Shown here: positions 928-43,944 of the stretch, in pieces
Numbering within the stretch: position 1 is the stretch's first letter
Layout of the letters: every line of letters starts with the position of its first letter
Assembly: GCA_965649825.1 (NCBI GenBank)
Contig: OZ287699.1
Coordinates: 434,001-498,000 of the forward strand
Direction: 5' to 3'
DNA: 64,000 nt
Origin: Penicillus capitatus
Taxonomy: Eukaryota; Plantae; Chlorophyta
The notes under the pieces: model-generated
The model's input: the letters and a program-made list of their open reading frames with translations, nothing else
Told to the model about the DNA's origin: nothing
Database searches by the model: none
Program-made: the position numbers and the translations under genes

Positions 928-3900
928 ATGTGCGCATTCCTACACTTGGCGTTGTACGTGGTGCTGTTTGTATCGCCGTCATCGCTATGCAGTCAAGGTT
1001 GGCGACCGCCATCCGACGTCGGTTTACTGTGTGTGGCAGATTATGGCAACAGCGTCTTTCCAGCTTTATTTCGTATTATTAAGATAACAGTAAGCAAAAC
1101 GATTGCGCTCAACCACACAGTCGATTCTGCGCCGTGGTGATACAGGGAGGGGGAAGGGCTCCACGTGGACGATTTCCTTACATGTGCAGTCTCCGAGAAC
1201 GCGGCACTCGAGTCCACAAATGCGGAGCGACGCTCTTCCGACCGAATTGGATCTTGACGGCAGCGCATTGCGTGGACCCCAATCAACACGGAACCGTTGG
1301 TCTTACGCCGATCGTCTACTGCGGCATCTACAAAGTCAACAAAATCGACGATGACAAAGTGATCTCTGTGTTTCTTCAACGACGAGTCCATACCCTCTTC
1401 TGTTGTAGGTGTTCGTCACAGTGGATGCCTATATACATGAGAAATGGAGCGGCAGTGTCGGTGATGGCTATGACATTGCTGTGTTGAAATTAGATAAGGA
1501 AGCGAATCTGACGCTGCCACATCTGGGATCCGCCAATGTCCCTATGGACGATGGGACATTTTTTACCGCCACGGGATGGGGTACGACCAAAAAGGTTCTC
1601 GCCCCCAAATATTTGCACGTGACGGACGAACTTACGAAAGAATCACCTGACAAGTGCAAAGAACCGCCAGTCCACGTCGACCCTGGCAGTTGGATCTGTG
1701 CAGGAGGAAGCGGAGAAGACACATGCAGAGGCAAGCGATCGACTTTGCAAAGTTATGTGCGTTGATCAACATGCGCGCTGCATTGCAGGCGATTCGGGAG
1801 GGCCTCTTATGCTTGCAGACGCTCCAGGCATTGCTAGAAACCTCAGCGCAGGGAAACCGAAATACGATCTCATCGTCGGAATTACATCATTCGGCTACGC
1901 AGACAATGAAACCAAAGAGTGCTCCGGAGACGTACCCGCTGTCTACACAAGTGTCGATTATTTCTTGGAATGGATAAAAGAGAAAGTTTCGGATCTCCCC
2001 ACCGTGAGATGCTGCGATCGAGTGCAAAAGAAATCACCGCGTCGTATACGTAGATGCCAGAAACCGAAGATCCAGGGCATCAAAAAGTGGATGTCCCTAA
2101 ACAAATAGAACCCAGTTCGACACAGCTCCAGATGATGACCGTGAGTCCAGTCACAGAAGAGCTCAAATGCCATCCGTCGTTGATCTGTGAAGGAAATGAT
2201 GTCTGCCATTCGAAAAGACAACGCTCCCAACGTTGAAGAGCTCCTGTCGGCTGGGCTGGACGTCAATGCTGTCCAAGGAAACGGTGCCAGTATCAGGGGA
2301 TTTCCGGTGGCGGCGGGATCGACGTTGCTCTATTGGACGGCTGTGTACAACGCTTTGAAATGCGCCCTGGTGAGTGATCTTTCTGTCGAGATTGAAACGA
2401 TGACGATCCACGGAATCTATCATCGCCTCTTGTTCCATCTCAACGGCGGGATGTGTTTGTCCGAAGGTGTTGATCGATCACGGAGCAAATGTCAACGCTG
2501 TCAATAAGGATGGACAAACCCCGCTTCACGCAGCAGCATTTCGAGGACTGTTGGAGATTGTGAAGGTGACCTGTTAAGCTGATAGCTGTGTTTAAAGACG
2601 TCGCCGGATGAAGGTTCTTATCAATCACGATACTGATCTGGACATTGCGGCAGTGGATGGATGGACCCCATTACAAGGGGCGGTTCGATACAAACACGTC
2701 GACGTTGTAAAGGTGACCTCCTTGATCTTTCTGGATTTAATTGCATGACAGACAGATCGACAGGTACTCCTCGGGGGCGGCGCAAATGTGAATGTCGTTG
2801 ACAAGACGGGATGGACGCCGTTGCGCTGGGCAGCAGAAGCCGGGGACGTTGACCTCACAAGAGTACTCTTGAGCAGGACTCTCGTAGTTGATGCGTCATA
2901 CATTGTTTCGCAGATTCTGCTAGAGAACAACGCCGACGCAGATATTGGGGACAACAGCGGACGGACACCACTTCATTGGGTCACAATTGCGAAACGCGTT
3001 GAAGTCGCGAAGGTGATCTGATCGCACGCATCGTTTTCGATGACGACAGCTCGTGATCTCGAAGACAGATTCTCTTAAAGTACGGTGCCAATGTGGATGC
3101 CATCGATGCAAGTGGACGGACTCCACTTCATTGGGCAGCAGAACTTGGAAACGCGGACATCGCAAGGGTAATGCCCAGACTCCATTTCGGTGTCGATTGC
3201 ATGACATACGCATCAACAGGTCCTCATCGATCAAGGAGCTGATGTGAACACTGGCGACAATAACGGCTGGACGCCGCTTCGATGGGCAGCTAACACAGGT
3301 CGTGTCATGATCGCAGAGGTATGTGACCTTTAAGCACGTCATCTACTTTTTCCTTGTGTTTTGGCCTAGGTTCTTCTCAAAAATGGCGCTGACGCAGATA
3401 TCGCGGACAACAGCGGACGAACGCCATTGCACTGGACAGCCATTTCCAGATACCCAGAGGTCACAAAGGTCACGTCAAAGTACCCATCTGCCTCTCGCGA
3501 CAACACAGATCAATGGACAGGTCCTACTTGACGGAAATACGAATGTGGACGCTATTGATACGACCGGGCGGACAGCACTTCATTGGGCAGCTGGAAGAGG
3601 ACACGACGATGTTGCGAAAGTGAGTTCCTAACCGAGATGCGTTCTCGTTACAGAGCATCTGTATCCACAGGTCCTTCTCGACGGAGGAGCCGATGTCAAC
3701 GTTGCTGACAACAGTGGATGGACGCCGCTTCGATGGGCAGTCAGTTCTCGGCACATCGACACCACACAGGTGAAGCCGAATTCGCATCTGGTCGTGGCCG
3801 TACTGTGATCGATAGATCCTCGTTGATCACGGTGCAAATGTGGACAGCGCTGACAACAGTGGACGGACGGTTCTCAGTTGGGCAGCGATCGCCGGCTATG

Positions 3901-4244: not shown

Positions 4245-4863
4245 TCGTCGCCTATATAATAATAATCTTGGGTTTTTTGTTCGGTTTCTTGTCTATATGG
4301 ACGCGTTTATTTGTCGAAATCACATAAGACTGAGGATGGGGTTTGGCTTTAAGTTTGCCAGCCATGGTTCTGGCTTATCGTTACGTCGACGTCAAAAAAT
4401 CGCGATCATCGAGTTCGCCTATCGCAAAGGAAGATTTGAAAACGGGATCATGGTATGCGAATCGTATACCGACCAACAACTCACGTCCGTTGTCCTGTCT
4501 TGATGATGATGACTGTTGACACAGACGACTTCGACATCGGCGGCTACAAGGATCGTCATCCTGTCCACTCGCGAAACATAACAGAGTCATTTTGGCAAAC
4601 GCGTGGATCGCATCCCGATGGATCACGTCGCCAACACGAGAACTATTGGGACCGAGAATGCAGCTGTCTGAGCGCATCGATGCCGGATCAAGACGAGAGT
4701 CGACAGGATATTCTACTGTCTTCTGCATAGTAGTGTCATCCACTTGTCTCCAAGAGTAATCGAGAGCTGAGCATCACTTGCAACAACCTTGGCGTCCTCT
4801 AGCGAACTCTGAAGACGGTCTTCAGGAAGAAGAACAAAACGAAGGTGAACCGGTCGAGGCAGG

Positions 4864-5042
4864 TGTGGACTCCTGCAGACAGTATTAAGCGATGACTCAT
4901 CATGGCACTTGTAGTCATCGCATCAACGACGTATTAGTCGCCCCTCCTGATCGGGAGGTACTTAAGGAGGGGCGTAAACAACGGAAAAGACTCTCGTTCT
5001 TTTGTAAGCAATCGTTTGTTTACAACGTCTGAAGTAATGACA
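4864..5042 (+). repeat. 5' LTR of element 1
   Basis: TGTGGACTCC...GTAATGACA, direct repeat of 9786-9964 (177/179 identical). Confidence 0.97.
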
Positions 5043-5645
5043 TCTGGTTTCGGAGCGAAGGAGACCGACCGGACGGTCATGGCTGTGTTGGTGGCAATCC
5101 TCCTTTATTGCGACGGAGGCGTTCAAACAGAAGCAGCGACAAACGACGATACGTCCAACGAAGGCTTGGAGATGACTGCCGGGCAGAACATGGCGGATAT
5201 AATGCGGACCATCAAGCTCTTGCGACGAGAGAACGCGGAGTTACGGGAAGACAAAGACCAGCTGTTGGGAGAGTCCATTAGACTGCGCAAACGTCTGGCT
5301 GCATGCTGTCCATGTCGCGAAGAAACGGCAGAGTCCACGACGGGGGGCCGATGGAAGTTCTAGAAGACATGGTTCTCGGCCAGCGATCACTCCAAGGCTG
5401 AAGATGCGCCGACGGCGCCGGAAGCCGCCGCGGACGAAAGCGGGATGTGGCGGTCAACCTTCCATCGGATCCGAAACTCAATCGTCGACTTCATCGCAGC
5501 GGCGGCGACGGTCACAGGCACGTCGCTCCGCATCATGTGGACGATCTTCTGGCTGTGCGTGGCATTCATCGTCACAAACGTGCTCTGCCTGATGTGGCTC
5601 AAGGCGACGGTCATGTGGAAAGGATGTAAGGCCGTTGACGGGTAG
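5037..5645 (+). CDS. Upstream ORF of element 1: hydrophobic N-terminus, coiled coil, C-terminal TM helix; one in-frame TAG at 5361-5363
   Basis: ATG 5037 lies inside the LTR end. Reads VMAVLVAILLYC, then IKLLRRENAELREDKDQLLGESIRLRKRL (heptad-like). The same frame continues after the TAG to IMWTIFWLCVAFIVTNVLCLMWL and stops at 5645. Confidence 0.6.
5045..5058 (+). promoter_or_regulatory. Primer binding site TGGTTTCGGAGCGA
   Basis: Starts with TGG 2 nt after the LTR. Identical to the 14 nt after the 5' LTR of element 2. Resembles the plant tRNA-iMet PBS TGGTATCAGAGC with 2 substitutions. Confidence 0.8.
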
Positions 5646-5844
5646 AGGACAACGGTTGCGGCCCTGCGGACCGGACAGGCTGCCCACTTCCTGATATGAC
5701 AGCGGTCCGCAGGCGCCGAGGGTACTTAAGTGACTGGACTCGCCATGTAATCAGTCTCTGCATTGACTCTTTACAGCTCCTCCGTTTCTGCACACGCGTT
5801 GGCGCGTTCGCGTCGCGCCGAAGTCCGACGAATCCCCGTCAGCC

Positions 5845-8800
5845 GTGGTAAAGTGGTACTTCCATCTGCCAATCTGGGTGGTGTTGGGAATAGCCGTCCA
5901 ACAGTTTATCCAACTCCTTCGACGACTGCAATGGGAAAGCGAGCCAGAAGGCAATGACGATGACCTCAGACAAGAACTCAGGGAGGTAAAGAATGCCCTG
6001 AGGGAGTTAAGGCGGGCCTCGGACGAAAAACGAGGCACCAGGGTCGACAAATCCGACACGCATGCTCGCCGACGCTCGTCCGATTCTCCCGGACCCTCTG
6101 CTTTTCCGAGAAAAGACGGAGGAACTCCGAGAGGGAAGCGATGCAAACGATGTGGGGGAGACGATCATCCGATTTGGGCCTGCCCTGCCAGGCCTAGCAA
6201 GCCCAGCGCTCCGTGTCCTATATGCCGTGGGATGCACTGGAAGGATGAGTGCCCCAAACAGCGAAAAGACAGAGCTTATGCAGCGTCCACCTGTATGGGA
6301 TCGGACATTGACGATGAGTTCAGTTTCAGAAGTGGCCGGTCCTCTCCCAGAGGAGGCGAAGTTCAGACAGATGAAGGGTGCTCTCATCAGCCGACAACGG
6401 CGGCAGTCAGTGGAACGGAAAGGGACAACGGGAGACCTCTCCTCCACGTGCAAGGGCGGATCGAAAACGAGCCTCGGGCCCGGGAGTTTCTCATTGACTC
6501 CGGGTCGTCCGCCAACTTGATCTCCAGGACGATCTGTGAAGAGATCGGGCATTCAGCGGTGCCTTGCGATGTGACTGAGGTTTACGGAGTCTCAGGAGAG
6601 GGTCTACCCGTCCTTGGGCAGACTACCCTGAACACTCACCTCGGGAGCTCAGAGAAGAAGGTGACGTACTTGGTTGTTCCCCAACTGGGGAAAACGATAC
6701 TTGGCACTCCTGCCTTACGTCAGTTTGAGTTCAGCATCAACTGCAGCGAGGAATACCTGCAGAGACCATGCGGAGAGAGACTCTTCTGCCATGCAGCCTC
6801 AAAAGATCAGCTGCAAAAAAAACTTCTAGATCTGGGGACCTCTGCCCCAGGGCCAAGAATCCAGGGGAGATCTGCCGCTTACCATACAGTGGAGATCTCC
6901 ATCCTCGGCCAAAGAAAAAAGGCGGCGCGTGTCGCAGTCGTGGGCAACCGTGCTCACTTGCCCCTCGGAAGGTCCACCGTGATGGGCCCTAAGGAAACAA
7001 AAATCCTAGTTTTACCGTTCAACGTGGTAGGAGACGGGATCCAAGGCGTGCTGCCAGTGCTACAGGTCCGTAACCTGCTAGCTTCCGTTTCCCTGTCCAA
7101 TGAAGGAACGGTCAGAGTCCAAATATATAATTCTGCCGGCGAAGCCAAATTGTTGAGTCCGAAACTCAAGGCAGCGGCAATCATCAAGACACCGGAGAGC
7201 CGATTCGACATCAGCGAGCCGGAAGCGTCTCACGAAGCAGACGAGAGCCCTTCGATGAGTCTCGTCTCGGCATCAGCACACACGGAGAAAGCCGATCTGG
7301 ATCACTTTGTGCAGAAATACCCAGCGGTATTCTCCAAAGGCATATTCGGCGTGGGCAAACCGATCGCGCGATTGAAGATATGTCACAAAGAAATCGAGTG
7401 GCTGAAAGACGTGGCAGACATTCCAAGCTGCAATAGAGGCGCTCGATACGAGACGGGGGACGTCTCCACCAAAGAAGCCGACGAAGTGCTTGCCGATATG
7501 GAGGCGCGTGGGGTGATCAGAAGAGTGAGGCCTGGTGAAAGGGTCTTTCTGAGCCCCACGATATGGGTCAGAAAGCCCAACGGGAAAGCACGCAAGACCC
7601 TCGACTTCCGGCTCTTGAATACATACTGCCGAACGTGGAAAGCTCAAATGCCGAGCGTGAGAGAGACAGTATCGTCTATACCGGCCGAGTGGGACAGGTT
7701 TACTGTCCTAGACTTAGACTGCGGGTTCTTTCACCTACAGGTTTGCGATGCCCTCCAGAAGCTATTCGGATTCGAGCACCAAGGAAAGAGGTGGACATAC
7801 AAATGCCTTCCGATGGGATGGCCATGCAGTCCTTCGCTGTTCCTTAGCCGTCTGCGCTCGGTCTTCGAGACCACCAAAGCAATCATCTATCAAGATGACA
7901 TCTTGATTGGCGGACGCGATCAAGGGGAACATGACAGCAATGTGGAAGAAGTATTAAGAGTGATGGAGGCCCACTGCCTTCACACCAATCGACAGAAGAT
8001 GCAGTTCTGTGAAAAGCAAGTGATTTTTCTGGGGTACGATGTCCGAGAATCAACGTTCAGCCTCGAGAGCTACATTCGCAAGCAATGCACCCAAGTGCCC
8101 ATATCGACGTCGAAGCATCAACTGCAGAAGATGATTGGAATACTGAACGTCTGTCGACCCACATGTCACAGACTAAGCCAGTGGCTGGAGCCCTTACAAG
8201 AAGAACTGAGTCTCCCGAGAAAGGATCGATCAGATCTGGCCACACTGCAGAGGAAGACAAGGGAAGTATGGGAACTGGTGCTGCGTAACTCGATGTCACT
8301 GCATCGACTACCAACCAATGCGACGAAGGAATCGCACCTCTACGTCGACTGGAGCGGCGTAGGAACCGGATATGCTCTGTTCTCAGGACCGATGAGCGAA
8401 GGACTGTTGATCGGAATCAACAGTCGTCGTGAAGCCAACGGCGCTGTGAGCAGCATGCTTGGAGAACTGAGAGGGCTTTGTTGGGCCCTCGAGCAAGTGA
8501 AGGTCATGACAGCGGGGACGCGAATAGTGGTGTGGACAGATTCCCAAAGCGCATACCAATGCGTAATGGGAACGCCACGAAGCCGGTCACTCCTCGACGC
8601 AAGGGTGTCTCGACTGCTCGATTGGCTTTGGACGAATTTCGAGATCCCCTCCAGACTTGAAGTGCGCTACCTTCCCGGTGCATCTAACGGGGTGGCAGAC
8701 GTCTTAAGCCGGTGGCCATCATTGGAAAAGGCAGCAACGACATTTCTCACAGAGCAACAGACCGAACGCCTGAGAACAGCCCACGACGGTCATTGGAACT

Positions 8801-9726
8801 CCCGCCGAACATGGGAGCACCTCAAAAGGGACGGAAGCACATGGCCATCGGCCCGAACGGATGTTGAAGAGTTCGTGCGAAGATGCGAGGGTTGTCAAAG
8901 GGGAGCCAGACCCCGTCTTAGAGATGAATGGAGAGGCATCGAATGTCCCGTGGCAAACCACATGTTGTTCCTCGACTTCCTAGGACCAATCAAGCTTGGA
9001 AGATATCAAAAGAAGAACAAGCATGTCTTAGCAATCGTCGACGGGCTAACCAGGTTCTGCCAGTTGACGATAACGACGCAACCAAACGAAGAAACCGTGA
9101 TCAAGACCCTCACGAGATGGTGGAATGCCACCGTGGCAAGACATGGAGGCATAGAAGCTATATTTTCAGATCAAGGCCAAGCATTTTGTGGTCGTCGATT
9201 GCGTGCCTTTTGCACCGAGCGGCAGATCACACATTACTATTCTCCCACCTATACCGCACATACGAATGGCCGTGTGGAGCGCCTTGTCGGGAACATCAAG
9301 AAAAGAGTGGAAAAGATGACCGCGAACCAAGAACTTCCGATCGACAGCAAACGCCTTGAGGATGTAATCAATGATGCCGTTCATGGCGTGACGAAATATA
9401 CGCCCAATGAGCTCTTCTGGGGCGTGACACGAAATGGAGAACAAATCGACGACGAGAGACTAAAGACATGGAGGGCAAAGGCGATCCAAAATTGCAGAAA
9501 ATCAAGGGAAGCCACTACGAGGCGAAGCCACAGAAAAATCGCAGCCTCATCGCCACCCTTAAGAACTGGAAGAAGAGTGCTGGTCTTTTACCCAGAAGCT
9601 GGCAAACCTGCAGCCTGGAGAGGTCCATACATGTTAGCAGAGAGAGTAGGAAGATGCAGATGGCGTATTCAAGGGCCAGTGAGGAATCCAGTTCACTCGA
9701 GCCGAATTAAAGAATACTATGATTGA
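5845..9726 (+). CDS. Gag-Pol polyprotein of element 1 (TM-like helix, coiled coil, 2 zinc knuckles, aspartic protease, RT, RNase H, integrase)
   Basis: 1293-codon ORF, open from 5767. Motifs: CKRCGGDDHPIWAC and CPICRGMHWKDEC, LIDSGS, YQDD, LYVDWS...ELRG...TDSQ...ADVLSR, HDGH...CEGC, FLDFLG/SDQG/VERL (DDE) and WRGPY. Confidence 0.95.
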   Translation: MVKWYFHLPIWVVLGIAVQQFIQLLRRLQWESEPEGNDDDLRQELREVKNALRELRRASDEKRGTRVDKSDTHARRRSSDSPGPSAFPRKDGGTPRGKRCKRCGGDDHPIWACPARPSKPSAPCPICRGMHWKDECPKQRKDRAYAASTCMGSDIDDEFSFRSGRSSPRGGEVQTDEGCSHQPTTAAVSGTERDNGRPLLHVQGRIENEPRAREFLIDSGSSANLISRTICEEIGHSAVPCDVTEVYGVSGEGLPVLGQTTLNTHLGSSEKKVTYLVVPQLGKTILGTPALRQFEFSINCSEEYLQRPCGERLFCHAASKDQLQKKLLDLGTSAPGPRIQGRSAAYHTVEISILGQRKKAARVAVVGNRAHLPLGRSTVMGPKETKILVLPFNVVGDGIQGVLPVLQVRNLLASVSLSNEGTVRVQIYNSAGEAKLLSPKLKAAAIIKTPESRFDISEPEASHEADESPSMSLVSASAHTEKADLDHFVQKYPAVFSKGIFGVGKPIARLKICHKEIEWLKDVADIPSCNRGARYETGDVSTKEADEVLADMEARGVIRRVRPGERVFLSPTIWVRKPNGKARKTLDFRLLNTYCRTWKAQMPSVRETVSSIPAEWDRFTVLDLDCGFFHLQVCDALQKLFGFEHQGKRWTYKCLPMGWPCSPSLFLSRLRSVFETTKAIIYQDDILIGGRDQGEHDSNVEEVLRVMEAHCLHTNRQKMQFCEKQVIFLGYDVRESTFSLESYIRKQCTQVPISTSKHQLQKMIGILNVCRPTCHRLSQWLEPLQEELSLPRKDRSDLATLQRKTREVWELVLRNSMSLHRLPTNATKESHLYVDWSGVGTGYALFSGPMSEGLLIGINSRREANGAVSSMLGELRGLCWALEQVKVMTAGTRIVVWTDSQSAYQCVMGTPRSRSLLDARVSRLLDWLWTNFEIPSRLEVRYLPGASNGVADVLSRWPSLEKAATTFLTEQQTERLRTAHDGHWNSRRTWEHLKRDGSTWPSARTDVEEFVRRCEGCQRGARPRLRDEWRGIECPVANHMLFLDFLGPIKLGRYQKKNKHVLAIVDGLTRFCQLTITTQPNEETVIKTLTRWWNATVARHGGIEAIFSDQGQAFCGRRLRAFCTERQITHYYSPTYTAHTNGRVERLVGNIKKRVEKMTANQELPIDSKRLEDVINDAVHGVTKYTPNELFWGVTRNGEQIDDERLKTWRAKAIQNCRKSREATTRRSHRKIAASSPPLRTGRRVLVFYPEAGKPAAWRGPYMLAERVGRCRWRIQGPVRNPVHSSRIKEYYD

Positions 9727-9785
9727 AGTGCGAAGCGAAGAATGATGGTTTTTTTGTTGTTTTCGAAGTTTGCAGCCGAAGCGTA

Positions 9786-9964
9786 TGTGGACTCCTGCAG
9801 ACAGTATTAAGCGATGACTCATCATGGCACTTGTAGTCATCGCATCAACGACGTATTAGTCGCCCCTCCTGATCGGGAGGTACTTAAGGAGGGGCGTGAA
9901 CAACGGAAGAGACTCTCGTTCTTTTGTAAGCAATCGTTTGTTTACAACGTCTGAAGTAATGACA
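9786..9964 (+). repeat. 3' LTR of element 1
   Basis: Direct repeat of 4864-5042, followed by TSD GCAGG. Confidence 0.97.
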
Positions 9965-10989
9965 GCAGGTCCGTTAAAAAAAGCCCGCGAGGAGATTGTC
10001 CTGCGACAACACCTTTGGGAAGTCCTTCTACAGCAATCATCGGCAAGGCGTGGATTGCAAAGACTGTTCGAACAATAATTGTAAGAATTTATGCAATTCG
10101 TTGGACAGCTGCACGAAGGTGGATAGCTGTCCACTAACACTGTTTACTCTCTTCGGTGTCCGTCGATAATGATGACTCCGGACGTCGTAAAACGTTTTGT
10201 CGCCGTAATGAACAATAGATATCGCTTTAAAGCACATTCTCGCTGCAGCAAAGACAATGACGCCGTCTGACCCATCGCAACGGAGGACCGATAGGGCAAG
10301 CGCGGTCGTAATTCAGAGGCGCGTCAACGAACGGTTTATCTTTAACTAAATCACGTCGTTTGTGTGGGGCAGCAGTCACGTCATGTCACGTCCATTATCG
10401 TAAGGAGAACCGCAACTGTCCGTGTCAACAGCGGCAAGAACGTTGTTTTAAAACAGTTGCACAAGTTTCAGTTTGTTCTGCGTCTGTATCATCGAACTTC
10501 GAAGACCCTTGTACCCAGACGGTTGCATCGAGGAGACGCCGAACACGATTGCCTCGATGCAAGGACTTGTTCCATCGCGAGCAAAGCAAGTCGTCCACAA
10601 CATCCACATCTTGGATAGCAACGAAACTCCGAATGCAAGAACTCCTGAACTGCTGGTTCGATCGTGCAGTTCAAATGTATTTGGGACTGACTACTGGCTT
10701 CGCAATAATCTGCACCGAGAATACCGTACTTGTGCAGCAAACAGTCAGATGTCCTGCTCTTGTTTCCTTGCTTCTTTCTCCCGCCATTCGAGGCATCTAA
10801 GTTTGGTACGCATCTCAGCAACGTGTTTATATCACCCAGCACACGGGGCACATCTCCTAGCGCTCATCCTTTTTCGCCGAGCGCAGTCGCCCACTCGGTG
10901 CGCTAACCGAAAGAGCCGGCAGCGGAAGCGGTGATGATGCGACAGGAGACTCTTTGTTGGGTCGGTCGCACGCATTCGCAATGGCGGTG

Positions 10990-11205
10990 CGTTACCTCCA
11001 AACACTCGTGCCATGAGCTGGAGTCCCACGCGGACACCCACGATTGGAATTTCTGGTCCGAGTTCTTTGACGACATCCATCGATGCCACCGAATCTTAAG
11101 GTCGGCCCAATCATGCTGATCGCGCTCATGCAGAAGTAGCTGCTAGGGAATTCTCAGCGAAATCAGGTCTGGAAGAGATAAGGATTCCACGCGGTTTCAT
11201 TTTCT
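10990..11205 (-). pseudogene. Anthranilate synthase beta subunit / class I glutamine amidotransferase fragment
   Basis: KPRGILISSRP and DSVASMDVVKELGPEIPIVGVRVGLQLMARVFG resemble the plant ASB motifs PRGVLISPGPG and DSGIS...ELGP..PLFGVCMGLQ. The nucleophile Cys position is Arg and the flanks are degenerate. Confidence 0.65.
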
Positions 11206-11285
11206 CGATCTCGCTGGCTGATATTGCAGTCCCCTTCGATCGTATAGCCCTTCAATGCAGTCTGTGTCGATCGATCGACCGACTG

Positions 11286-11440
11286 GAGAGCGTTTCGAAT
11301 GCCGATCGGTAGACTCGAGAGCGTTTCGAATGCCGATCGGTAGACTCGAGAGCGTTTCGAATGCCGATCGGTAGACTCGAGAGCGTTTCGAATGCCGATC
11401 GGTAGACTCGAGAGCGTTTCGAATGCCGATCGGTAGACTC
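11286..11440. repeat. Minisatellite, 5 exact copies of 31-bp GAGAGCGTTTCGAATGCCGATCGGTAGACTC
   Basis: Direct count; head-to-tail with no spacers. Confidence 0.97.
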
Positions 11441-11854
11441 CCATCGATTTGCATTGTCATAAGGAGTCGACTCGCCAAGGGAGTGATCTGCGTCGTACAG
11501 CGTCATGATGATAAATACACAATTAGTCGGATCGATTTTGATAACGGTAAACAAGGATTCGTGGTAGCTTGATTTCGACGCATCGATGCATTTGTTTAAC
11601 GTATCGTTCAACGACACTGCGGCGGCGAGCTGCAGGAAGAGCTGTCCTGATTCATCAATGGTTTTTAACACTATTCAAGCGGCGATCGAATCGACAGGCG
11701 TTGCTCGAGACGACATCACCGACAGCAGCAGGACCTCTGGTAGGCCGCGGACGATGATGATCGATGGCTGCTGCCGTTCGATCGGAAACGATCGAGCTCC
11801 AATAGCAGAGACATGGCGATTGATTCCTATGGCTCCTAAAACAAACTTATTGAT

Positions 11855-11887
11855 ATCCGATCCGATCCGATCCGATCCGATCCGATC
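11855..11887. repeat. (ATCCG)n pentanucleotide microsatellite
   Basis: About 6 tandem copies seen directly. Confidence 0.9.
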
Positions 11888-13029
11888 GCCCAATCACTCA
11901 AAGTTTCAAAATCCTCGCACCTTTGATACGCCTGTGCTGGGCACGAAGCTGATCCTACGGTTCGCTTCCTATCATGTCCGGCGCGATCTCCGGGTATGTA
12001 TTGACGTGTGTCGACGTACTTGTAGATGCTGTCGCAGGTCGGGTCGGACGAAAAGATTCACAGCGGAAGACTTCTTTGTTGTTTACAGAGCAAGGTCAGA
12101 TAAGGTTTAAACTGTTCATTATATACTCGCATGGTGACGTAACCCTTCTAGAATGGTGAGTCAGCTCGTGTTCAGGGCCAAAGAAAGACGTCCCAAGACG
12201 CAGTTGACAAGACAGGCAGCGCCCCCTCGCACGGCTGACCCCCACAGAACAAGGCAGTGTCACATCGCTCGGCGACAGATGCATCCATTTTTTAAAAAGG
12301 AGCGATCGACCCGACGCTGAGCTTCGAGGCAACGCGGAAAGTTAGACGACAGAGTGCGCGAACAAAAACAATTGCATTGCGTCAGACGCGCAATGTACGC
12401 GTCCGACGCGACAGATGAGAGGAGTCCCATCGTCGACGCGACGTTTGCATTCTCGCGCGACCCACACTTACTGTGATCCTATCATCTGCCGAATGATCGA
12501 GACGATTGATTATTGTGGTTTGATTTTCGACTGCGTTCTGACCGGTTTTGTGTGCGTCTAACGTTTGCGACGAAGACCAACGGCTTCCGCCAACAGCTTC
12601 TGTCGACGCTTACCAAAGCGAGATTGCATAGAGTCTTCTCATCGACACGCACGTCCCCGTTGTCGAAGCGTACGCTTTCCTCACCGCTTTTCGCGGTTTA
12701 TCGCCGCCGTCCCTTGCTTTAGCCTCGACATGGAACGTGCACTACTCAAGAACCTTGGACGAGACGTCGCCGATGTGAAAATATGGCGCCATTCGGGCGG
12801 AACGTTGTCACGCACTCGGTCAATCGAACGGGTTGGGAGGCGGTCGATGACGAAGGCTTATCGCTTACAGAAGACTGTCAGACAAATGAAGGGTCGAGGT
12901 TAAATACCCGAGGAACGAAGTAACAGGTCACATCAAGTGTTCCTGGGACACTCGTTGGTCCACTGCGCGGAGCTCGGCATTACGTAACTGTGACAAACGT
13001 CGATTGAACATGACTGTAATTAGTGGCAT

Positions 13030-13860
13030 TTGTTTGCCGCTTATCGTTTTTTGCGCCACTTGTTGCGCGACGACAAGGACCGAGAACTACTGGCGGGTTT
13101 CACGTCAAAGTTCTTTACAACCTTCTGGAATCTCCTTGGAAACTCGCTCTTGAACTTCGCGGCGTCTTCCTACGTTGTCTTGTCGGTCCCGTCACCGGAG
13201 GAGTACACCATCGAGAGCTGGATGCGTGAATCATCTTTCGGTTCACAACGGAGTTTACGCTTGTGTGCATGCAAACGTTGTTCAAACCATCTGTTGTCCA
13301 TCGCTGCCGCAACAACTTGTCGCACTTGGCTGCACCTTTGCGTCGGTCTTCGTCATCCTCCCTGCTTTGTTCATCTTACCTCAAGACTTCCGCTGCGCTT
13401 GTGAGATGAGTCAACCCAGAGACGGGTATGGTTCCCACTCTCCCGCTCCCCGGGGAGGTCTCACCAGACGCCACAGCGGGGGAGAGATTCGTGTCCGCGC
13501 CGAGGACATCTTGGGGGTCGCGGCGGGTGAGGGAGCCGACAAGCAATCTTCTCAGCCTGCATCCGGAATGGGCCTTCGCTTCCGTGCCCAGACGAGAGTG
13601 TGTGTTCACCTTCTACGCCACACAAGCGTACGCTCGAGCGGTCATCCCCGGTGATCGCGTAATGCTGCCGTTGGTTGTGTCACTGGTCGTAGGCCCGCAG
13701 CAACGCGTGATGAAGGTCTCGCCGTAACAAGTCACGGGGAATGGCGTTCGTGGTATTCTTCCGATCTCCCAGCCCACCGGATTGATCGTTGGAGCGACCC
13801 TTTTCGACAAAGGAATCATCACGACGACCATACGGAATGCGACACACGTGCGGCCAACAG
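13030..13860 (+). mobile_element. Decayed, internally deleted Ty3/gypsy relic related to element 1
   Basis: AYARAVIPGDRVMLPLVVSLVVGPQQRVMKVSP*QVTGNGVRGILPISQPTGLIVGATLFDKGIITTTIRN aligns with element 1 AARVAVVGNRAHLPLGRSTVMGPKETKILVLPFNVVGDGIQGVLPVLQVRNLLASVSLSNEGTVRVQIYN. There is an internal TAA, and no LTR or RT was found. Confidence 0.6.
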
Positions 13861-14194
13861 AAGTGCGAAAGCGTGTTCGAAATGACGTCAAGCAACAGCC
13901 TAAGCGCCTCAAGTCTTCATGGCCTCGAACGATCACGCCACGATCCTACATGATTTCATTCTTTTCAAACGTGCTATGTGCGAAAGAGGTACTCTCGCTC
14001 CGATCGCATAGCCGCTTTGCGGATGCGTCGCCAGATCGCATCATACGAGACGCGCACACCGTCCAAGCCGCTTCGAAATCGCGACGAGATCTCTTTCTCG
14101 CTTTGCCCCTTCAGATGAAAAGACCTGTCTGGCGTTGCATTGTCTAGGCAATGTGAATGGCTTAGTCGTTTACCAACCGTTCGATACGTGTTCG

Positions 14195-15202
14195 ATGACC
14201 GAGTCATTCCTTCCACTCCAAGACTTGGCGACGTTCTTCAAGGCATGGAATGCAGATTTCTGCATATTCTTGCACTGTTGCTGGGCTGCGTCTCAAGCAA
14301 AGCAGTTCAGAGGTTACTTTCTCCTTCACTTTTGGGTATGTCTTCTCTCGATTTCATTCCCTTTAAAAAGCAACACAAAACCAGATGACGTATCTATGTG
14401 GATTTGGCGGCGCGCTTGTTACCTCCATTCTCTTTATGGTACTGCCGTTTGCTTCGTTACCCTCTTGATACAGTGGATGTCGACAGAGACCTGAAGAAAG
14501 CAACATCCTGATCTTGGGAAAGAATCGACATGCACTGACATGGATTCTTGCTTGGTTATCCATTCATCGTTTCTTCCTGCTATGTTCATTCCTGATAGGT
14601 GGTCTATGAACTACTTTCCGTTTGGTTTGGTCGAAAGATGCATGAAGATCAAGCCAGTGTGGGTGATCGTCACTGTAGGATCGGCATTCTGTCGTGCGAC
14701 GATGATCGCCTCGAGGGTCACTCGCTATAAAACTCCTCCCTCCTTCTGATGTTATGTCTTGCAGGTTAACCTCTCTGTCAAGTTCTTCCCAGGAAATCAT
14801 GTTGCCCCGGTGGTCATGGCCACCATGACGAGCATGTCTGGTAAATTTCTGTTACAGATCATTGCTCGCTGTTTCGTACCACACTCTCAACCCAATGAAC
14901 TCGAACAGCCCAGTTTCGTTTGGTGGTCTGGATTTCAGTGTGCCCTGTTTTATTACCTCGTCGCATATCTCCTACCATTGATCCACCCATCTGAAGCTTG
15001 GGCGTTGATCTGTTTGGTGTTGATCTCCCATGCCATTGTCCTAAACGCGACTGGCTACAACATCGATTTCACTGTTCCTTTCAGAACTTTCGTCGTCTTC
15101 GTTGCTAGACTTTCCTCTTTTCAAACGCCACTGACAGGGAAGGTTCAATCATCAAATGTTGATCCGTCCGAAGATGGAAAGCAGTCTAAGAAAAATAAAT
15201 GA
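14195..15202 (+). CDS. TRIC (TMEM38-like trimeric intracellular cation channel) family protein, paralog A, multi-exon
   Basis: Exons read MTESFLPLQDLATFFKAW..., YLCGFGGALVTSILF, WSMNYFPF, FCRATMIASRV, FFPGNHVAPVVMATMTSMSGKFL and several TM segments. These fit the TRIC FGGG / YxP / R / P...G motifs. Confidence 0.7.
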
Positions 15203-21464: not shown

Positions 21465-21613
21465 TGTGCTATTTGCACCGCGAACGCGAAAATCGCGGTG
21501 AAACACAAAACCCTAGCGAACTTTTTTAAAGGGACGCTCTGTCGTTTTTCGCGACAATTTATCTTCTATCATTATGTCCCATCCGTCTCTGTCGCGAGCG
21601 TCTGTCGCTCACA
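21465..21613 (-). repeat. 3' LTR of element 2
   Basis: Identical to 27727-27875 by direct comparison; TG...CA ends. Confidence 0.97.
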
Positions 21614-24335
21614 CGCTTCCCTGCGCCAATACTTCACTAAGTCGTCGCCATGCACTACTTGGCTTCTTCCATTCTTAGAAACCAAGTATCGTCGGGAGGA
21701 GAGGCGAGCGGTGATGACGTGCGGACCGCTCCACCAGGGATCCAGTTTGCGACGTCCCTTGTGAAGGTAAATCAACACCTCGGATCCGATCTCTAACGGC
21801 ATCTGGCGCCTCCCTTGTCGACGGCTATTTCGATATGCCCTCTGTTGTCGCGTACGAACCACAGCTTGTTGTCGGGCTTTATCCAATGCCATACCCGGAT
21901 TCCCTTCCGACTGTCCCAATCCGAACATAAGCTCTTTCGGCCTATATCCAGTCACGGAATGTTTTGTAGTGTTGTATATACCCACAGCTTCGGAAATCGA
22001 ACGGCGCCAGGGCGAGTTGCTCGTGCTCATCATTCTCCTTATCCTACGTAGAATGGTCTGGATCGCACGTTCCACTAGTCCGTTCGAAGCTTGGTGATGA
22101 GGGGCGGCCATCACATGTCGAATCTGATTTCTGCCACAGAAATTACTGAATTCGCTCGAACGCAGCGCGGCTCCAGCATCTGATATGATCGTTTCCGGAG
22201 TCGAATGTCGATTGATCCAATGTCGAACGAGCTTCATCACGGATCGGATGCTAGTGTCCGGCACAATCACTGTTTCTACGAAACGGGTTAATCCGTCAAT
22301 CGCCACCCCGACGTATCCTCCAGCGCTTCGGCTCTGTGCCGGGAACGGTCCCATAAAATCGATCCCCACGACTTGAGCGGGGCGAATGGCTTCAACGGAA
22401 CCAAATGACTCCTGTGGGACTCGCTTCTGCCACTTCTGGCAAGCATCACAAGACTTGAGAATAGTCCTAATGTCCTTGAACATTCCCTTGTATGACTTCC
22501 CTCGCCGGCGAAGCTCATCCGCGACTGCGGCGGGTCCTACATGGCCTCGGTTGTGTACGTCCTCAATGAACCTTCTGCGCTCTAGTGTCAATGTCGGTAT
22601 CTTTCCCGTCGGAACCTCGGGGGAATCGATTGCGTGTATCCTTCGTTGGAGATAGGTGGATCGTGACAGAAGGTCCGCAGCAGTGTTCTCAACGCCTGGG
22701 ATGAACTTGACACTCGGGTTAAACTGCAAAATCTGATCCAGTCTGCGGAGGACAATCGGGCTGCAATTGTCAGGAGACATGGCGCGAAAGGCTGCCCAGT
22801 TGTCGGTGTACACCTCGACGGGGCAGTGTGCGATGTAGCCCTCAAACGCACGGAGGGCCAGCAAGATAGCGTCGATTTCTGCCTCGCTGGAATGTGCCCA
22901 AGTCTTCGACGAAGACTTGCTGAACATCGCCACAGGTTTGTCATCCGATAAAAGAACAGCCCCATACCCCGTTGAGCTAGCATCAGAAATCACGGTCCAC
23001 TTCCCATTCTTTTGGGGGAAGCTAAGCACATGCCACTCAGTCTGGGTCCTCTCTATTACTTCATTCCACACTCTGCGAAACTCTTCTGTTCTGAAGGCAT
23101 CCGGAGGCTTTCCTTGATACTGTCGCAGCGGGGCGACGATGGCATGCTGATGACCTTGGAATCTGACCAGTTGGTTCAACAGACCAAACACGACCCGCAA
23201 CTCTTTTGTGTTGTTCGGTATACAGAGGTCTGAGAGCTTTTTAATGAGGCCCGAGGATGGTCGGAGGCCGTCGCGCCCGATCTCAATCCCGAGGAACTCG
23301 ACAGCCGGACGTTTTAAACGGATTTTCTGCGGGTTGCAACACCATCCGTGAGCCGATAAGGCCTGAAAAATCACCCCCAACGCAGTATCATGAGATTCCT
23401 CGGTCTGGGTACCCAGTAATATGTCGTCAACATAGGCTCGAATCACTGCATCCGGAGGCAACTTTGGAGCTATTTCGGCCATCGTCATGTTGAGAGCCGT
23501 CGTGAAATGCGTCCCCGAATGAATCCAACCGAACGGTACTCGCTTAAATCTGTACCATTGACCTTGCAGCTCGAAACCGAAATACTGTCGAATTGACTCA
23601 TCGAGAGGTATCTGCATATATCCCTTCGCCAGGTCAATTGTACTCCAAACCTCTCGTTCAGGTACTGATTCGATTGTCTTCATTCTGTCTAAAGCGTTGG
23701 CTTGTAGTGCGAGCGAAGCTGCATTCAATAGACGAAAATCATGGACCAAACGGGACTTCCCGTTTGGGGACGTCACTATGATCATCGGGGTGACAACTGT
23801 TGGCCGGGTCTTGACCGTCTCGATAACGTCTAGGTCAAGGAGATCTCTTACCATCGGTCGCATTTTGTCACACTCTGCTTGCGAATGAAATCTCAGCTTA
23901 AGTCGGCTCCAATCGACATTTTCGCGCAATCCTGCATCTGTGACTGCATAGTGGGTCGTCATCCCGATGCCGTCGCGAAGCACCTCCGGAAACTTCTTCT
24001 GCAGCTCTTCCATGACCGTACAGGTGGCGATAACCGCCCGCTTTGCTGGGCGATTGCGTTCAATGGGAACTATCTCTCCTGACACTCGGTGAAGGAACAC
24101 TGACGTCTCTTGGGGGACTAGAAAGCCGACGGCTCCGTTCTTTGCTCCCAGTTGCTGGGGTTCGCTTGAAAGATTGATGAAATGAACTTTCAAAGGTACC
24201 CCTCGCTGTCTCGTGGCTCCGATGACGGCTATTCCGGCCGGCAGATTTCCGGAACCCGATAGGAGCACTTCTCCGTTCATGACACTATATGGCAACTGGA
24301 CTGTCGTCATGTCCATCGGCTTGAGCACTAACGAT
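21572..24335 (-). CDS. Pol portion of element 2 (RT, RNase H, integrase)
   Basis: RLVHDFRLLN, IDLAKGYMQ, PFGW, YVDD, SDASSTGYG...EIDAI...TDNWA...ADLLSR, HNRGH...CDAC, IDFMG/SDAG/VERA and WSGPH. The stop lies inside the 3' LTR. Confidence 0.95.
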
Positions 24336-25964
24336 TTTTCGTACGACACTTTCGTTTTGCTACGTCAAAACCCTTGCCGAACGAAGGTGCCCGAACACGC
24401 GCTTTACGTATGATGCAGCCCTCCGGTTCGTCGTCCGCAGGCCCTGACACCGCCCCCGACCCAGTGCGCACGGCGGTGGCTCAAGCGGCCCACACGGTCA
24501 GGTACCGCCGCGATCTGCGCCGGACCCCCGAGGTGCTCGAGGCAATGAGCAAGAAGGAGCTTATCCTCGTCAACACCGCTCTACAGGCCTGCCCTACCCA
24601 CATCGCTGCGACCGTGGAACCAGCTACGCTTGTCTCGAAGATTCGCGCCTACCTGGCGGCGCACTCAGAGAAGGACGCAGCCCAGCTGATGCTAGTGCAC
24701 AGACTCGAGAACATGCGCAACCAGCTCCTCCTGGCGCCCGAAGCCCCAGAACTGCCACGATCGGGAGAATCGCACACGTCTGCTCTCTGCCGCACCCGCC
24801 ACTCCGTTCCGCCGAGCCAACTCCTTCGAGCATGCTCAGATGACATCCGCGCCTCCATCAGACAACTCGAGCACATCACAGAGACGCTCGATCTCGAAGC
24901 CCTTGAGAAACCGACCATCCAGGCCATCTCCAAGCTACAGGAGGTCCAGAACTGCATGCTGTTCTACCACAGCATCACGGATTGGTCACCGCCCGCCGAC
25001 CACTCCACGCCCCCTGCGCCTGCGGTCAGAGTCCAAGCAGCGACAGAAGCTAGCAGCGCTGCCCCCAGATCGTATCGGGAGGCCGCCCGAAAGACCCTGC
25101 CCACGAAGACCCCTGAACAGCAGCAACGGAACGCCCATGCAAGAGAACTGAGGAAGAAAACTCAGGAGCTCAAAGCGCAGATCAGATGCGATGAACGCAG
25201 CTTTCAGCTGTGTCCAGTGAAACTGCAGGGAGATCGACCGTCGTTCCGCCAGCTCGGCATCAGTCTGGAGCGAAAGCTCCAGATCAGGAATCTCAAGGAA
25301 TACGTGGAAGACATCCGCACAGATCACGGAGGCCGCTACTACGTGCAAATCCGTGCTGACCTGCGAGAGTCCTTCGAGAAATCACTTGATCGCTGCCTGG
25401 AATGCGCCGGTGACACTTGGGATCTGGAACTGGACGACCTGGGTACCTTTACTGTCAACAATCCGTATCTCTCGCCCACCAAAGACAAGGTCCCAGTGGT
25501 CATCAGCAACGTAGACCTGGACATTGACCCGGATGATGCCATCACTGCCATTGCGGAACAGAATGCTTCCCGTTGGAAAATTCCGGCGGATGAACTGGAA
25601 GGAAAGCACCTCGCAGCTCCACACCGATTGAATCGCCGCAAACGCGATCCGGCCGGACAGCCCCTCCCGGAATGGACACCCAGCAGGAACGTGAAGGTCT
25701 TCGTGTCGAAGACCCTCTTCGAGCTACTGAAGGATCCCAAGACCGCGTTCGCTACGCTAGACTACATGGTACTACCAATCCGTTCATTTACACGGCCTCC
25801 CAGGTCCCATCAAAGAGTTCCCTGAATCTCACTACAGTTCATTTCATGCATGCTTCTGCTCTGGTCTTGCTCTGCATCGCCTAAACTTGGTTTAAGACCT
25901 CTCCTCTGATGTTTAACTTGAAAAGGGGATGTAAGAAGCGCCAATTTTATTATTATTATTATTA
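24336..25964 (+). mobile_element. Non-autonomous LINE-like element (ORF1 only) inserted antisense into element 2
   Basis: 13-15 bp TSD (TT)GAGCACTAACGAT at 24321-24335 and 25965-25979, an (ATT)n 3' tail, a single long ORF, and no APE or RT. Confidence 0.88.
24410..25825 (+). CDS. Non-LTR retrotransposon ORF1 (Gag-like nucleic-acid-binding protein), apparently truncated before the zinc knuckles
   Basis: Helical/coiled N-half, then VPVVISNVDLDIDPDDAITAI...HRLNRR...WTPSRNVKVF...LDYMVLPIRSFTRPPR. This pattern usually precedes CCHC knuckles in I/Jockey/R1-type ORF1. Confidence 0.65.
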   Translation: MMQPSGSSSAGPDTAPDPVRTAVAQAAHTVRYRRDLRRTPEVLEAMSKKELILVNTALQACPTHIAATVEPATLVSKIRAYLAAHSEKDAAQLMLVHRLENMRNQLLLAPEAPELPRSGESHTSALCRTRHSVPPSQLLRACSDDIRASIRQLEHITETLDLEALEKPTIQAISKLQEVQNCMLFYHSITDWSPPADHSTPPAPAVRVQAATEASSAAPRSYREAARKTLPTKTPEQQQRNAHARELRKKTQELKAQIRCDERSFQLCPVKLQGDRPSFRQLGISLERKLQIRNLKEYVEDIRTDHGGRYYVQIRADLRESFEKSLDRCLECAGDTWDLELDDLGTFTVNNPYLSPTKDKVPVVISNVDLDIDPDDAITAIAEQNASRWKIPADELEGKHLAAPHRLNRRKRDPAGQPLPEWTPSRNVKVFVSKTLFELLKDPKTAFATLDYMVLPIRSFTRPPRSHQRVP

Positions 25965-25979
25965 TTGAGCACTAACGAT

Positions 25980-27727
25980 CGGCCGAGGGGTAAGAAAACA
26001 GCGTTCTCCCGTCGGAATGGCTTTGCCGTCCTAGTCTCATCTTCCCGTATCACCAGATCATTTTTGTCAGGTCGTCTTTGTCGATCTTCGGATTCCACGT
26101 CGACTTGACTCTTAACCGCAGAGCATGGAATAAGTTCCCCATTCTCAATGCGTAATGCATCGGATACACAGTCAATGATGGCACCAAATGCAGTGAGAGT
26201 TGGTTTCCCAATCAAAGGCTGCGATGCTGAGGATGAGACTTCAAATTGCACCTTTCTAGTCTCACGGCCGATCGTAGTCCATAAGTCCGTCACACCCGAT
26301 GTCCTCTCCACTTGACCATTGAAGGCTTGGAGAGACTTTGCTCCGGAGGGATCGACGGGCCACCCTTGCTTTCGAACCAAGCGCAAAGGTATCACACTGC
26401 GAGCAGCGCCAGTATCGACCAGCATCCGCGTCTTCCTTTGAGTATCCCGGGTTTGACCAAGATTGACGGTGAGATGCAAGAGTGGGAGCCCCTCTTCAAC
26501 GGCAGAACTCTTCATCGTCGCCGCATTAGTCGCCGTATGCGTCGAAGGCATGGTATACTCAGAACCACTCTTCTCCTTACAATCGCGTTTACGATGTCCG
26601 TATTTTCCGCATCTAAAACAATGTCCGTGAAACTGCTTTGCTTTGCCGGCAGTATCGTCCATCTTCTTCGTCATGTTCACAACTTCGCCCTCGCGTTCTT
26701 CATACGCTGGATCTTCGGGATCGACCAGATCTGCGTTGTACGGATCGACCACGGAATCTTCCTCCTGTCCGATGTGCCCGATGTGATGCCTGTGACCTGA
26801 TCTTGGTCTCTTCACATTACTCCACGTGTGGTATCGAGTCGCTAAGGCTTGTAGTTCTTCGAAATCGAGGAGATTGTAATCCGCGTTGTTCCTGAGGTAG
26901 CTTACAAACTCTGGTTCGAGCTTCGCCATCACCACATTCATGGCGCGCCTCATGCTCACTCCTTCACACTGTCCGAAATAGACGACTCTGCAACGGTTGA
27001 CAAAGGCCAAGGCCGATTCGGTCTCCCCGCGGCGCAACTCAACCAAGTATTGCACGCGGTCTGGCACGTCCTCCACTCCCCCATGCAGACGCTCCAAGCG
27101 CGCGGCTACAGCCTTCCACATCTCCTCACCGCGCGATGCAACGTCAGCTCTTGCTCCCTTTGTGTTAGGAGGTAAGGGGCCACCTCCTGTATATGCCACA
27201 CAGACCGAACGAATATCGGCGGTCACTGAGTCGCCGAATGGCGTCGTCTCATCGAAATGCGCTGTCAAGGCTCTAACCCGTTGAAATGGGTCCACTATCT
27301 CAAATTCCAGCTTCGCGATAGTCTGCCGATGTGTTCGGACTGTCCATTCGCTCAATCGTCGGTTCCTACCGACGCGGCGCTCTGAATCATAAGGCCATGG
27401 CTGCGATAGTGCAAGCGCGACTCCGTCTTCACGATTACAGGTCGCCGGCTCGAAAGATAAATCTTTCCGTCTCCATCTCCATATAACAAGCAGTGCGCCT
27501 CCGATGGAGAGGATAGTCATAACCGTCAAAGCGCTAAACACCCAAAGCAGCCATTTTGCGTTCGCCCAACGAGACGACATAAATTCTTCGTCCTCATCGA
27601 CCGGGCAGTAGTCTTCGTCGCCGCCTCTAGGACTATCGGCCGGCTCCCAGAGCCAACCGACGAAGAGTCTCCCGAGGGTAGTGGCTACTAGAGTGGCCAC
27701 TACAGTTACAACTCGCTCCGAAACCAT
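25980..27727 (-). CDS. Gag-protease portion of element 2 with N-terminal hydrophobic and TM segments
   Basis: ATG is formed at the LTR/PBS junction. TM-like WLLWVFSALTVMTILSIGGALLVIW followed by RWRRK, gag-like LRRGETESALAFVNRC, CFRCGKYGHRKRDC and LVDTGA. Removing the insert and one TSD rejoins LGRSLVL-KPMDM in frame (about 1503 aa). Confidence 0.92.
27713..27726 (-). promoter_or_regulatory. Primer binding site TGGTTTCGGAGCGA of element 2
   Basis: Immediately follows the 5' LTR on the minus strand; identical to the element 1 PBS. Confidence 0.82.
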
Positions 27728-27875
27728 GTGCTATTTGCACCGCGAACGCGAAAATCGCGGTGAAACACAAAACCCTAGCGAACTTTTTTAAAGGGACGCT
27801 CTGTCGTTTTTCGCGACAATTTATCTTCTATCATTATGTCCCATCCGTCTCTGTCGCGAGCGTCTGTCGCTCACA
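27727..27875 (-). repeat. 5' LTR of element 2
   Basis: Identical to 21465-21613; flanked by TSD GATGC. Confidence 0.97.
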
Positions 27876-42615: not shown

Positions 42616-43611
42616 TCATCTTTTCTTCTTTGATTCTTTTCCATTGGGTGATGTCTTGGCCTCTGTCGCATCTGGTGTGGACTTGGCCTCTGGATCTGGC
42701 AGATTTGCAACGAACATGGTGAGCTTTCTGATAGGTAATGTAAAATCAAACGCTCGACCCGCTGCCGTCGCTAGAATAGAATGCGAGATGAGAAGCAGGC
42801 AAAGAAGTGCCCGGGCCTCTTCCGGCTGCAGTAGTCCATAGAAATGAGATGTAAAGTAGTAGAATATGGAGCATTGAACGCTGGACCACCAGACGAATCC
42901 AGGCTGCATCATCTCGTTGGGCCCAGCATTCGGCACAAAACACCACACCAAAGCTTCCAAAATGGGCTTTCCTCCCATACTTCCCATTGTTGCCATGACA
43001 ATTGGTGCAACGTGGTTACCTGGGTAAAACCGCACGCACAGATCAGCCTACGAATAAAATTCAAGATGTGTTCCATGATAGCTGGAGAGAGACAGTCCAT
43101 GCAATCATGAAGGCTCGACAGAAGGCAGATCCTGTTGTGATGATGATCCAAATGGGTCTAAATTCGATGATCTTCTCCACGATGCCGTACGGAAAGTAAT
43201 TCACTGTCCACCTAGAAGACCAAATTTAGGACGGATGGCGGTAGAAAAAGAAGTCGACCATGCGAAAAGCCACATCCAGGCCTGAACATTCTCTCCAAGC
43301 AGAGGAAATGCAATTTCATCTGGTCTCTAAATAAACGCGGTTTCTTACGAATCGAGGAAAATTGGGAGCACCATGAAGAACAAAGCGGTTAAGACAGCGC
43401 CGCCGAATCCGTTCAGAAACGTCAACTGTACTTGAGAATAAAGAAAACTATATCAACAGTTAAAACTGACCCAGAAGTGAAGGAGGAATCGGTTTCGGAA
43501 CTCCTTCAGCTGTGACGCAGCCCAAAAGCAGTGCAGAAATATGCATAGGTCAAGATTCCACGCCTTAAAGAACGTCGCCAAGTCTTGGAGCGGAAGTAAT
43601 GACTCGGTCAT
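42616..43611 (-). CDS. TRIC family channel, paralog B
   Basis: MTESLLPLQDLATFFKAW... and RFYPGNHVAPIVMATMGSMGGKPIL...; mirror of 14195-15202. Confidence 0.7.
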
Positions 43612-43944
43612 CGAACACGTATCGAACGGTTGGTAAACGACTAAGCCATTCACATTGCCTAGACAATGCAACGCCAGACAGGTCTTTTCATCCGAAGGGG
43701 CACAGCGAGAAAGAGATGTCGTCGCGATTTCGAAGCGGCTTGGACGGTGTGCGCGTCTCGTATGATGCGATCTGGCGACGCATCCGCAAAGCGGCTATGC
43801 GATCGGAGCGAGAGTACCTCTTTCGCACATAGCACGTTTGAAAAGAATGAAATCATGTAGGATCGTGGCGTGATCGTTCGAGGCCATGAAGACTTGAGGC
43901 GCTTAGGCTGTTGCTTGACGTCATATCGAACACGCTTTCGCACT

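Follow-up and report, generated by a model that had tools for sequence, protein, structure and literature searches.

Element 1 of the window (the 64,000-nucleotide stretch of Penicillus capitatus DNA analyzed here) is, as read from its sequence, a damaged copy belonging to a diverse group of LTR retrotransposons in whose Gag no capsid is detected, and the Gag of its family is very probably devoid of a capsid (CA) domain. The element spans positions 4864-9964 and bears the marks of the Ty3/gypsy type: direct LTRs, a TSD, a tRNA primer site, PR-RT-RH-IN and a zinc knuckle. As the original prediction had stated, the two LTRs are identical at 177 of 179 positions, the TSD is present and the pol domains are uninterrupted, a 1319-codon frame (5767-9726) encoding PR, RT, RH and IN with no stop within; only ~60 bases separate the end of pol from the 3' LTR. 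The features referred to below are as follows.

4864-5042, + strand: 5' LTR (179 bp, TG...CA), with TSD GCAGG at 4859-4863
5037-5635, + strand: 5' part of gag, its ATG within the LTR end; 95.5% identical to residues 1-200 of P0138
5045-5057, + strand: primer-binding site, identical in element 2
~5070-5117, + strand: gag signal-like segment (hydropathy/model)
~5190-5306, + strand: first coiled coil of gag (hydropathy/model)
5361-5363, + strand: in-frame stop, present in the window copy and absent in sisters
~5445-5510, + strand: gag amphipathic helix (hydropathy/model)
~5529-5597, + strand: predicted TM helix of gag (hydropathy/model)
5636-5841, + strand: nested solo-LTR-like insert (206 bp, TG..CA, 7-bp terminal inverted repeat, 5-bp TSD GCCGT)
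5842-6141, + strand: gag continued (amphipathic helix with conserved Pro, second coiled coil, basic low-complexity linker)
6142-6252, + strand: two zinc knuckles (nucleocapsid, NC)
6448-6790, + strand: retropepsin protease (DSG)
6815-6823, + strand: A-run slippery site; the gag-PR reading frame of the family closes here (..KN) and pol opens in a different one
6925-7176, + strand: conserved region between PR and RT
7567-8040, + strand: RT
8323-8709, + strand: RNase H
8758-9255 plus C-terminal part, + strand: integrase, stop at 9724-9726
9786-9964, + strand: 3' LTR, with TSD GCAGG at 9965-9969
21465-27875: element 2, CA-bearing, used for comparison only
26819-27328, - strand: CA-like double domain of element 2, which is in the same RT clade as element 1

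The primer-binding site is presumably of the initiator-Met type, by resemblance. Weak Pfam matches in the relatives P0204 and P0245 suggest that the region between PR and RT is probably a degenerate dUTPase-like domain. Each gag frame begins either within the LTR end or on the primer site itself (5037-5057; 27714-27727), the primer site being translated (GFGA or MVSER), and these words likewise start several relatives.

The window copy had been called intact, which it is not: it contains the stop at 5361-5363, the nested insert and a longer A-run at the slippery site. When contigs of four public DNA sets (three studies) were aligned to element 1, the stop was read differently in three of the four (the fourth has no cover there), and contigs skipping ~5633-5844 were found in all four. 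The A-run at 6815-6822 was shorter in contigs of three sets, in two of them only in part of the depth. Summed contig depth was higher over the nested insert, which contributes the first 25 residues of the long ORF. The placing of the first knuckle cysteine at residue 100 agrees with a count from the GTG at 5845 (~100), but from the preceding stop it is residue 126. What had been taken for a second, upstream ORF is the 5' part of the same gag, which in sisters forms one Gag-protease of 526-530 aa. P0138 (526 aa) matches element 1 at 95.5% over 5037-5636 and at 97% over 5842-6825, and P0139 (530 aa) is collinear at 63%; these two are the natural uninterrupted Gag-proteases of two subfamilies, in each of which gag and pol are apparently on one contig (shared listed lengths of 63,818 and 7,009). 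A 4,591-nt contig from another organism runs from gag to pol and the 3' LTR with no additional segment. An extra CA segment near 5.6-6.1 kb in sisters, set beforehand as the observation that would count against the prediction, is not there; the sisters are shorter near 5.6-5.8 kb.

The Gag-PR of sisters ends immediately after ..KN in all eight that were aligned and the closest Pol relatives (10/10) start downstream of the protease, which points to a probable family layout of gag-PR with a -1 frameshift into pol. The window copy reads through the A-run in a single frame, whereas the family changes frame there. We take the run at 6815-6823 to be the slippery site according to the slippery-site rule; a hairpin 3' of it is marginal (z -1.8, 10/200 shuffles) and an Rfam search gave no match. 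Of the 33 CA-less proteins in which a protease is present, 30 likewise end in a KN-like motif. Two other ways of reading the frames were considered. A reassigned TAG code was rejected, the long ORFs being Gln-rich without stops and the sisters having another reading at the stop, and a spliced gag using an intron-like stretch near 5750 was dropped because that stretch sits within the nested insert.

The Gag-PR is ordered as a signal-like segment, a coiled coil, one predicted TM helix with flanking amphipathic helices, a second coiled coil, two knuckles and the protease. Its center is a module of ~130 residues, aligned in 26 proteins, that consists of CX4C, an amphipathic helix, a TM helix with an Asn, an amphipathic helix, a Pro and a helix. 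The Asn and the Pro are each found in 25/26 and CX4C in 15/26; the E1 family (element 1 and its sisters) is without CX4C at that place. The helix, coil and linker quoted in the original prediction were found where it had put them, but that helix, there called TM-like, lies downstream of the predicted TM helix and is probably amphipathic: a KD of 1.6 is reached in 4/26 homologues, against 16/25 (KD ≥1.6, median 0 charges) for the upstream helix. The module thus probably has a single TM helix. Lysine and arginine are richer after this helix than before it in 22/26, and an N-terminal hydrophobic segment is present in 14 of the 20 rows long enough for testing. From simple hydropathy and charge counts of this kind, a topology is predicted in which the first coil is luminal and NC-PR-Pol cytosolic. 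In an AlphaFold model of P0138 (26 sequences, pLDDT 70, pTM 0.34) the protease is well folded, and upstream of it lie separate helices of 16, 39, 13, 22, 45, 23 and 25 residues; a trimer prediction for residues 46-265, in which the alignment was not used, scored 0.02. Between the two subfamilies, identity is 71% in the module, 76% in the first coil, 68% in RT and 76% in PR, versus 33-50% in the linkers and second coil. Relative to one sister contig, pN/pS is 0.15 for the coil, 0.12 for the membrane part and 0.9 for the linker (34 differences; few sites). The membrane module hence looks to be under purifying selection, on a pN/pS of ~0.12 from these few sites.

The place expected for CA is 5842-6141. 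A CA profile seeded initially on four CA-only proteins proved too narrow and was set aside. A clade-specific profile was made from 16 CA-bearing proteins of the profile search, held out by group; it finds 12 of the 16 held-out carriers (11.8-49.6 bits) and misses four known or presumed ones. Among 34 CA-less candidates it detected none (best score 3.3 bits), a result that confirms the sorting and is not a frequency, since the candidates had been chosen by hand as CA-less beforehand. That the profile family represents CA is consistent with two matches: an overlapping ten-protein alignment of CA-bearing members matches the Arc CA in PDB (E 3e-4), and one CA-bearing member carries a Pfam Ty3_capsid match. 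In six-frame scans the profile reached a best score of -0.1 bits in element 1, as the predicted absence of CA had it, and 38.4 bits (held out) in element 2. A profile of the CA-less proteins compared with PDB gave 60 best matches, all of those listed falling on knuckles, protease or adjoining linker. Searches with the whole 526-residue P0138 model returned protease-driven matches, which fill the lists, and generic long helices (Z ≤6.6), with no CA among them; likewise, Pol dominates the PDB matches of the Pol-containing alignment A4, the best being Ty3 Pol. The long separate helices of the P0138 model are unlike the two compact four-helix CA domains described in PMC6525542. Upstream of the protease, then, a confident CA match, the other observation set beforehand as counting against the prediction, did not appear with the clade-tuned profile, and the model has long single helices there.

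Element 2 provides the comparison. It has TM segments, as had been pointed out, together with the CA-like domain that the original prediction did not foresee, and the argument for a family trait that was drawn from it fails accordingly. The trait itself is borne out elsewhere, by the module carriers described below. The pol of element 2 is ~25% identical to that of element 1, Pfam missed its CA, and a single-sequence AlphaFold model of its Gag (pLDDT 38) was unusable as a structural positive control. The TM+CA group compared with reference CA by profile-profile alignment gave a weak match (E 0.004, probability 8%). Element 2 is interrupted at 24321-25979 by a ~1.64 kb insert with a 15-bp TSD, an (ATT)n tail and, on the opposite strand, a 497-aa ORF without a real Pfam match; the insert looks like an RT-less non-LTR element. 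A similar-looking 390-aa ORF, P0115, is fused into P0118 and has no similarity to the 497-aa ORF. The natural sister of element 2, P0252, is one 1503-aa ORF. In P0157 (18 members), the Gag TM region is followed by what is apparently the C-terminal CA domain only (22.5 bits, held out), possibly a single-domain capsid or a helper. The P0157 family and P0144 are apparently on one contig, which places CA-bearing relatives in the same genome. When the TM regions of CA-bearers were compared with the module profile, none of 13 scored above 1 bit, so that the series two-CA, one-CA, no-CA is architectural only. A close CA-bearing sister of element 1 was found neither in the contig sets nor among the protein relatives. 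The TM segments ascribed to a relic elsewhere in the window turned out to be hydrophobic stretches in stop-rich frames, matched by neither profile. That relic corresponds to a small piece of pol, with 70-75% identity to P0004, and lies in an inverted duplicate (10634-14344 / 43462-47173) of ~3.7 kb, whose copies are 94-98% identical and contain tandem repeats of 31 and 28 bp. Host genes lie in 2452-3885, 49822-55025 and 62592-63668; they encode ankyrin-like repeats (identified by eye), a membrane protein with PMP repeats and a starch synthase. Together with a GC content near 51%, they point to a green alga as host, possibly one resembling Ostreobium (published GC 52.4%).

How widely is the module carried? 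A profile search of 1.84 billion representatives yielded 150 proteins, many of them fragments, and those with long N-terminal parts were sorted by eye into CA only, TM plus CA, and TM without CA. In the last class 26 align over the module and P0234 matches too (49 bits), giving 27 carriers, with a median protease identity of 29% among the 22 compared; LTRs and pol were seen in three cases only (E1 family, P0186, P0234), and the remaining carriers are proteins that lack a DNA context. A module profile built without the E1 family scores that family at 15-27 bits, versus ≤5 for reversed controls. Seven further CA-less TM proteins with long ectodomains have no module homology detectable by profile, and profile-profile comparison of the module with this group was weak (E 9e-4, probability 23%). 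Names sought for ten clusters were found for none, metagenome and viral contig scans gave only distant loci or none, two queries of the ESM Atlas gave no usable match, and a word-indexed search with alignment A3 returned four close relatives only. P0186, P0185, P0264 and P0265 are TM-bearing Gags without CA and, by pattern, without a zinc knuckle; P0186 is a single 1810-aa Gag-Pol with an Arg/Ser-rich stretch where CA and knuckle would be.

The RT tree groups elements 1 and 2, P0186, P0218, P0278 and those close Pol relatives that were sampled in a single clade (99/95). This clade is separate from the chromovirus and animal gypsy sequences included, in a tree with long branches and a small number of named references. 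The clade adjoins retrovirus-like rows (87/81) on long branches, which may be an artefact. The CA-bearing element-2 group branches first within it (midpoint root, long branches), so that CA loss is likely the derived state. On the protease tree CA-less and CA-bearing forms interleave and at least three changes are forced. Monophyly of the CA-less forms is rejected on protease (p-AU 6e-10; 5e-4 without P0278) in tests on 130-residue trees from which long rows and the long-ectodomain group were left out, and repeated loss or recombination is therefore needed. P0278, which has the CA C-terminal domain (its N-terminus is missing), and P0207, which has none, are close protease relatives; the pair suggests either regain of CA by recombination or recent loss.

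Replication in membrane compartments, as put forward in the original prediction, may be how such elements multiply. We give somewhat better than even chances to an autonomous membrane mechanism in which the module stands in for CA, surrounding the RNA-Pol complex with a pocket of the ER. The signal-like segment would target Gag to the ER during its synthesis and place the first coil on the luminal side. Because of the TM helix, everything downstream (the second coil, the knuckles, the protease and the Pol reached by frameshifting) would stay cytosolic, and the knuckles would bind element RNA. As the coils oligomerise and the amphipathic helices curve the membrane, an invagination with a neck, or a bud, would form and concentrate Gag and Gag-Pol; the protease would then dimerise and release RT and IN, tRNA-primed reverse transcription would take place in the pocket, and the integration complex would exit to the nucleus. 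We favour this membrane pocket because a full membrane Gag, amphipathic helices and coils on both sides are kept under selection. Part of the picture has precedent: PMC7828637 describes foamy virus Env lattices that drive release of capsid-less particles, and PMC3945221 has Ty1 Gag passing via the ER and Ty1 retrosomes forming there.

The presence of CA-bearing relatives in the same genome makes a serious rival of a second reading, unlikely though we judge it: CA-less Gag would dock RNA and Pol at the membrane where CA-bearing TM relatives assemble, and be packaged in their shells. CA-bearing TM elements do occur in the same window and apparently on the same contig, elements 1 and 2 have a common primer site, and the interleaving on the protease tree, with its three or more changes and rejected monophyly, fits helper dependence. 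The precedent is BARE2 in BARE1 particles, as reported in PMC3735527, but BARE2 lost Gag translation, whereas in the present group selection has retained a complete membrane Gag in families that are far diverged. The TM regions of the CA-bearers also have no detectable match to the module that would point to a common co-assembly surface; no close CA-bearing sister was found, and element 2 is as distant in pol as stated above. Fairly improbable, in our judgement, is an open patch without enclosure, that is, a membrane-tethered Gag RNP on the ER or nuclear envelope at which local concentration suffices for processing and reverse transcription; its anatomy would be identical to that of the pocket and Ty1 retrosomes at the ER resemble it (PMC3945221), but it leaves the kept luminal coil, the Cys motif and the conserved amphipathic helices unexplained, and unshielded intermediates would be open to nucleases and silencing. 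A CA too diverged to detect, or hidden in the helical region, is very improbable even though the profile missed 4/16 carriers and Pfam the CA of element 2, because from the conserved Pro to the first knuckle P0138 has 91 residues, filled by a helix of 23 residues, a coil of 25 and a disordered linker. A knuckle is present in 23 of the 26 rows, and in these the span is 58-144; CA, by contrast, is a double four-helix fold, which PMC6525542 treats as conserved across Ortervirales, and the upstream part is on the predicted luminal side.

Returning to the membrane pocket, the succession of coil, Cys motif, helix, TM and amphipathic tail is reminiscent of a retroviral Env TM subunit, a likeness that has no profile support (no Pfam Env family was among the best 25 of 32 families); on this likeness, buds might even pass from one nucleus or cell to another as enveloped particles without a capsid. 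The broadest reading is one on which we are evenly divided: a whole LTR retrotransposon branch repeatedly lost the Ortervirales capsid and is autonomous in membrane pockets or buds of a single-pass membrane Gag, and might travel in this enveloped form.

Compared with known systems, the group shares with Ty3/gypsy elements (Metaviridae) the TG..CA LTRs, 5-bp TSD, tRNA primer site, PR-RT-RH-IN and CCHC knuckles, and differs in that the element 1 family has no detected CA and a conserved membrane module in Gag. Like BARE2 (Copia), which PMC3735527 reports as packaged in BARE1 particles, it has no capsid of its own; unlike BARE2, which cannot translate Gag, sisters of element 1 keep an open, selected membrane Gag with NC and PR. 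The sORF2 of the MDG1 group (412, Stalker2) is likewise a small TM protein, with its coding sequence lying 5' of that for the nucleocapsid (10.1101/2025.03.14.642691), but it is a separate ORF beside a normal capsid, whereas here the TM module is in frame with NC-PR and CA is absent. In foamy virus Env subviral particles a membrane-protein lattice also drives budding without a capsid (PMC7828637), but these contain glycoprotein only, and no sequence relationship was found. Troyka is another divergent gypsy-like lineage, but for its Gag PMC12440569 reports CA and NC domains, identified with HHpred, together with a CX2CX8-10HX4C finger. A description of such capsid-less membrane-Gag elements was not found in a literature search that had most subscription journals and Repbase outside its scope.

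If the reading proposed here is true, a diverse, selected and recently transposing group of LTR retrotransposons does without the double CA fold, and the shell would be replaceable. The CA-less group would make it testable what CA serves: concentration, protection or protease activation. The architectures found in the clade (TM with both CA domains, TM with the C-terminal domain only, and TM with none) form a comparative series for the loss or swap of a capsid. Under the helper model, the same elements would represent a new, membrane-based kind of capsid parasitism.
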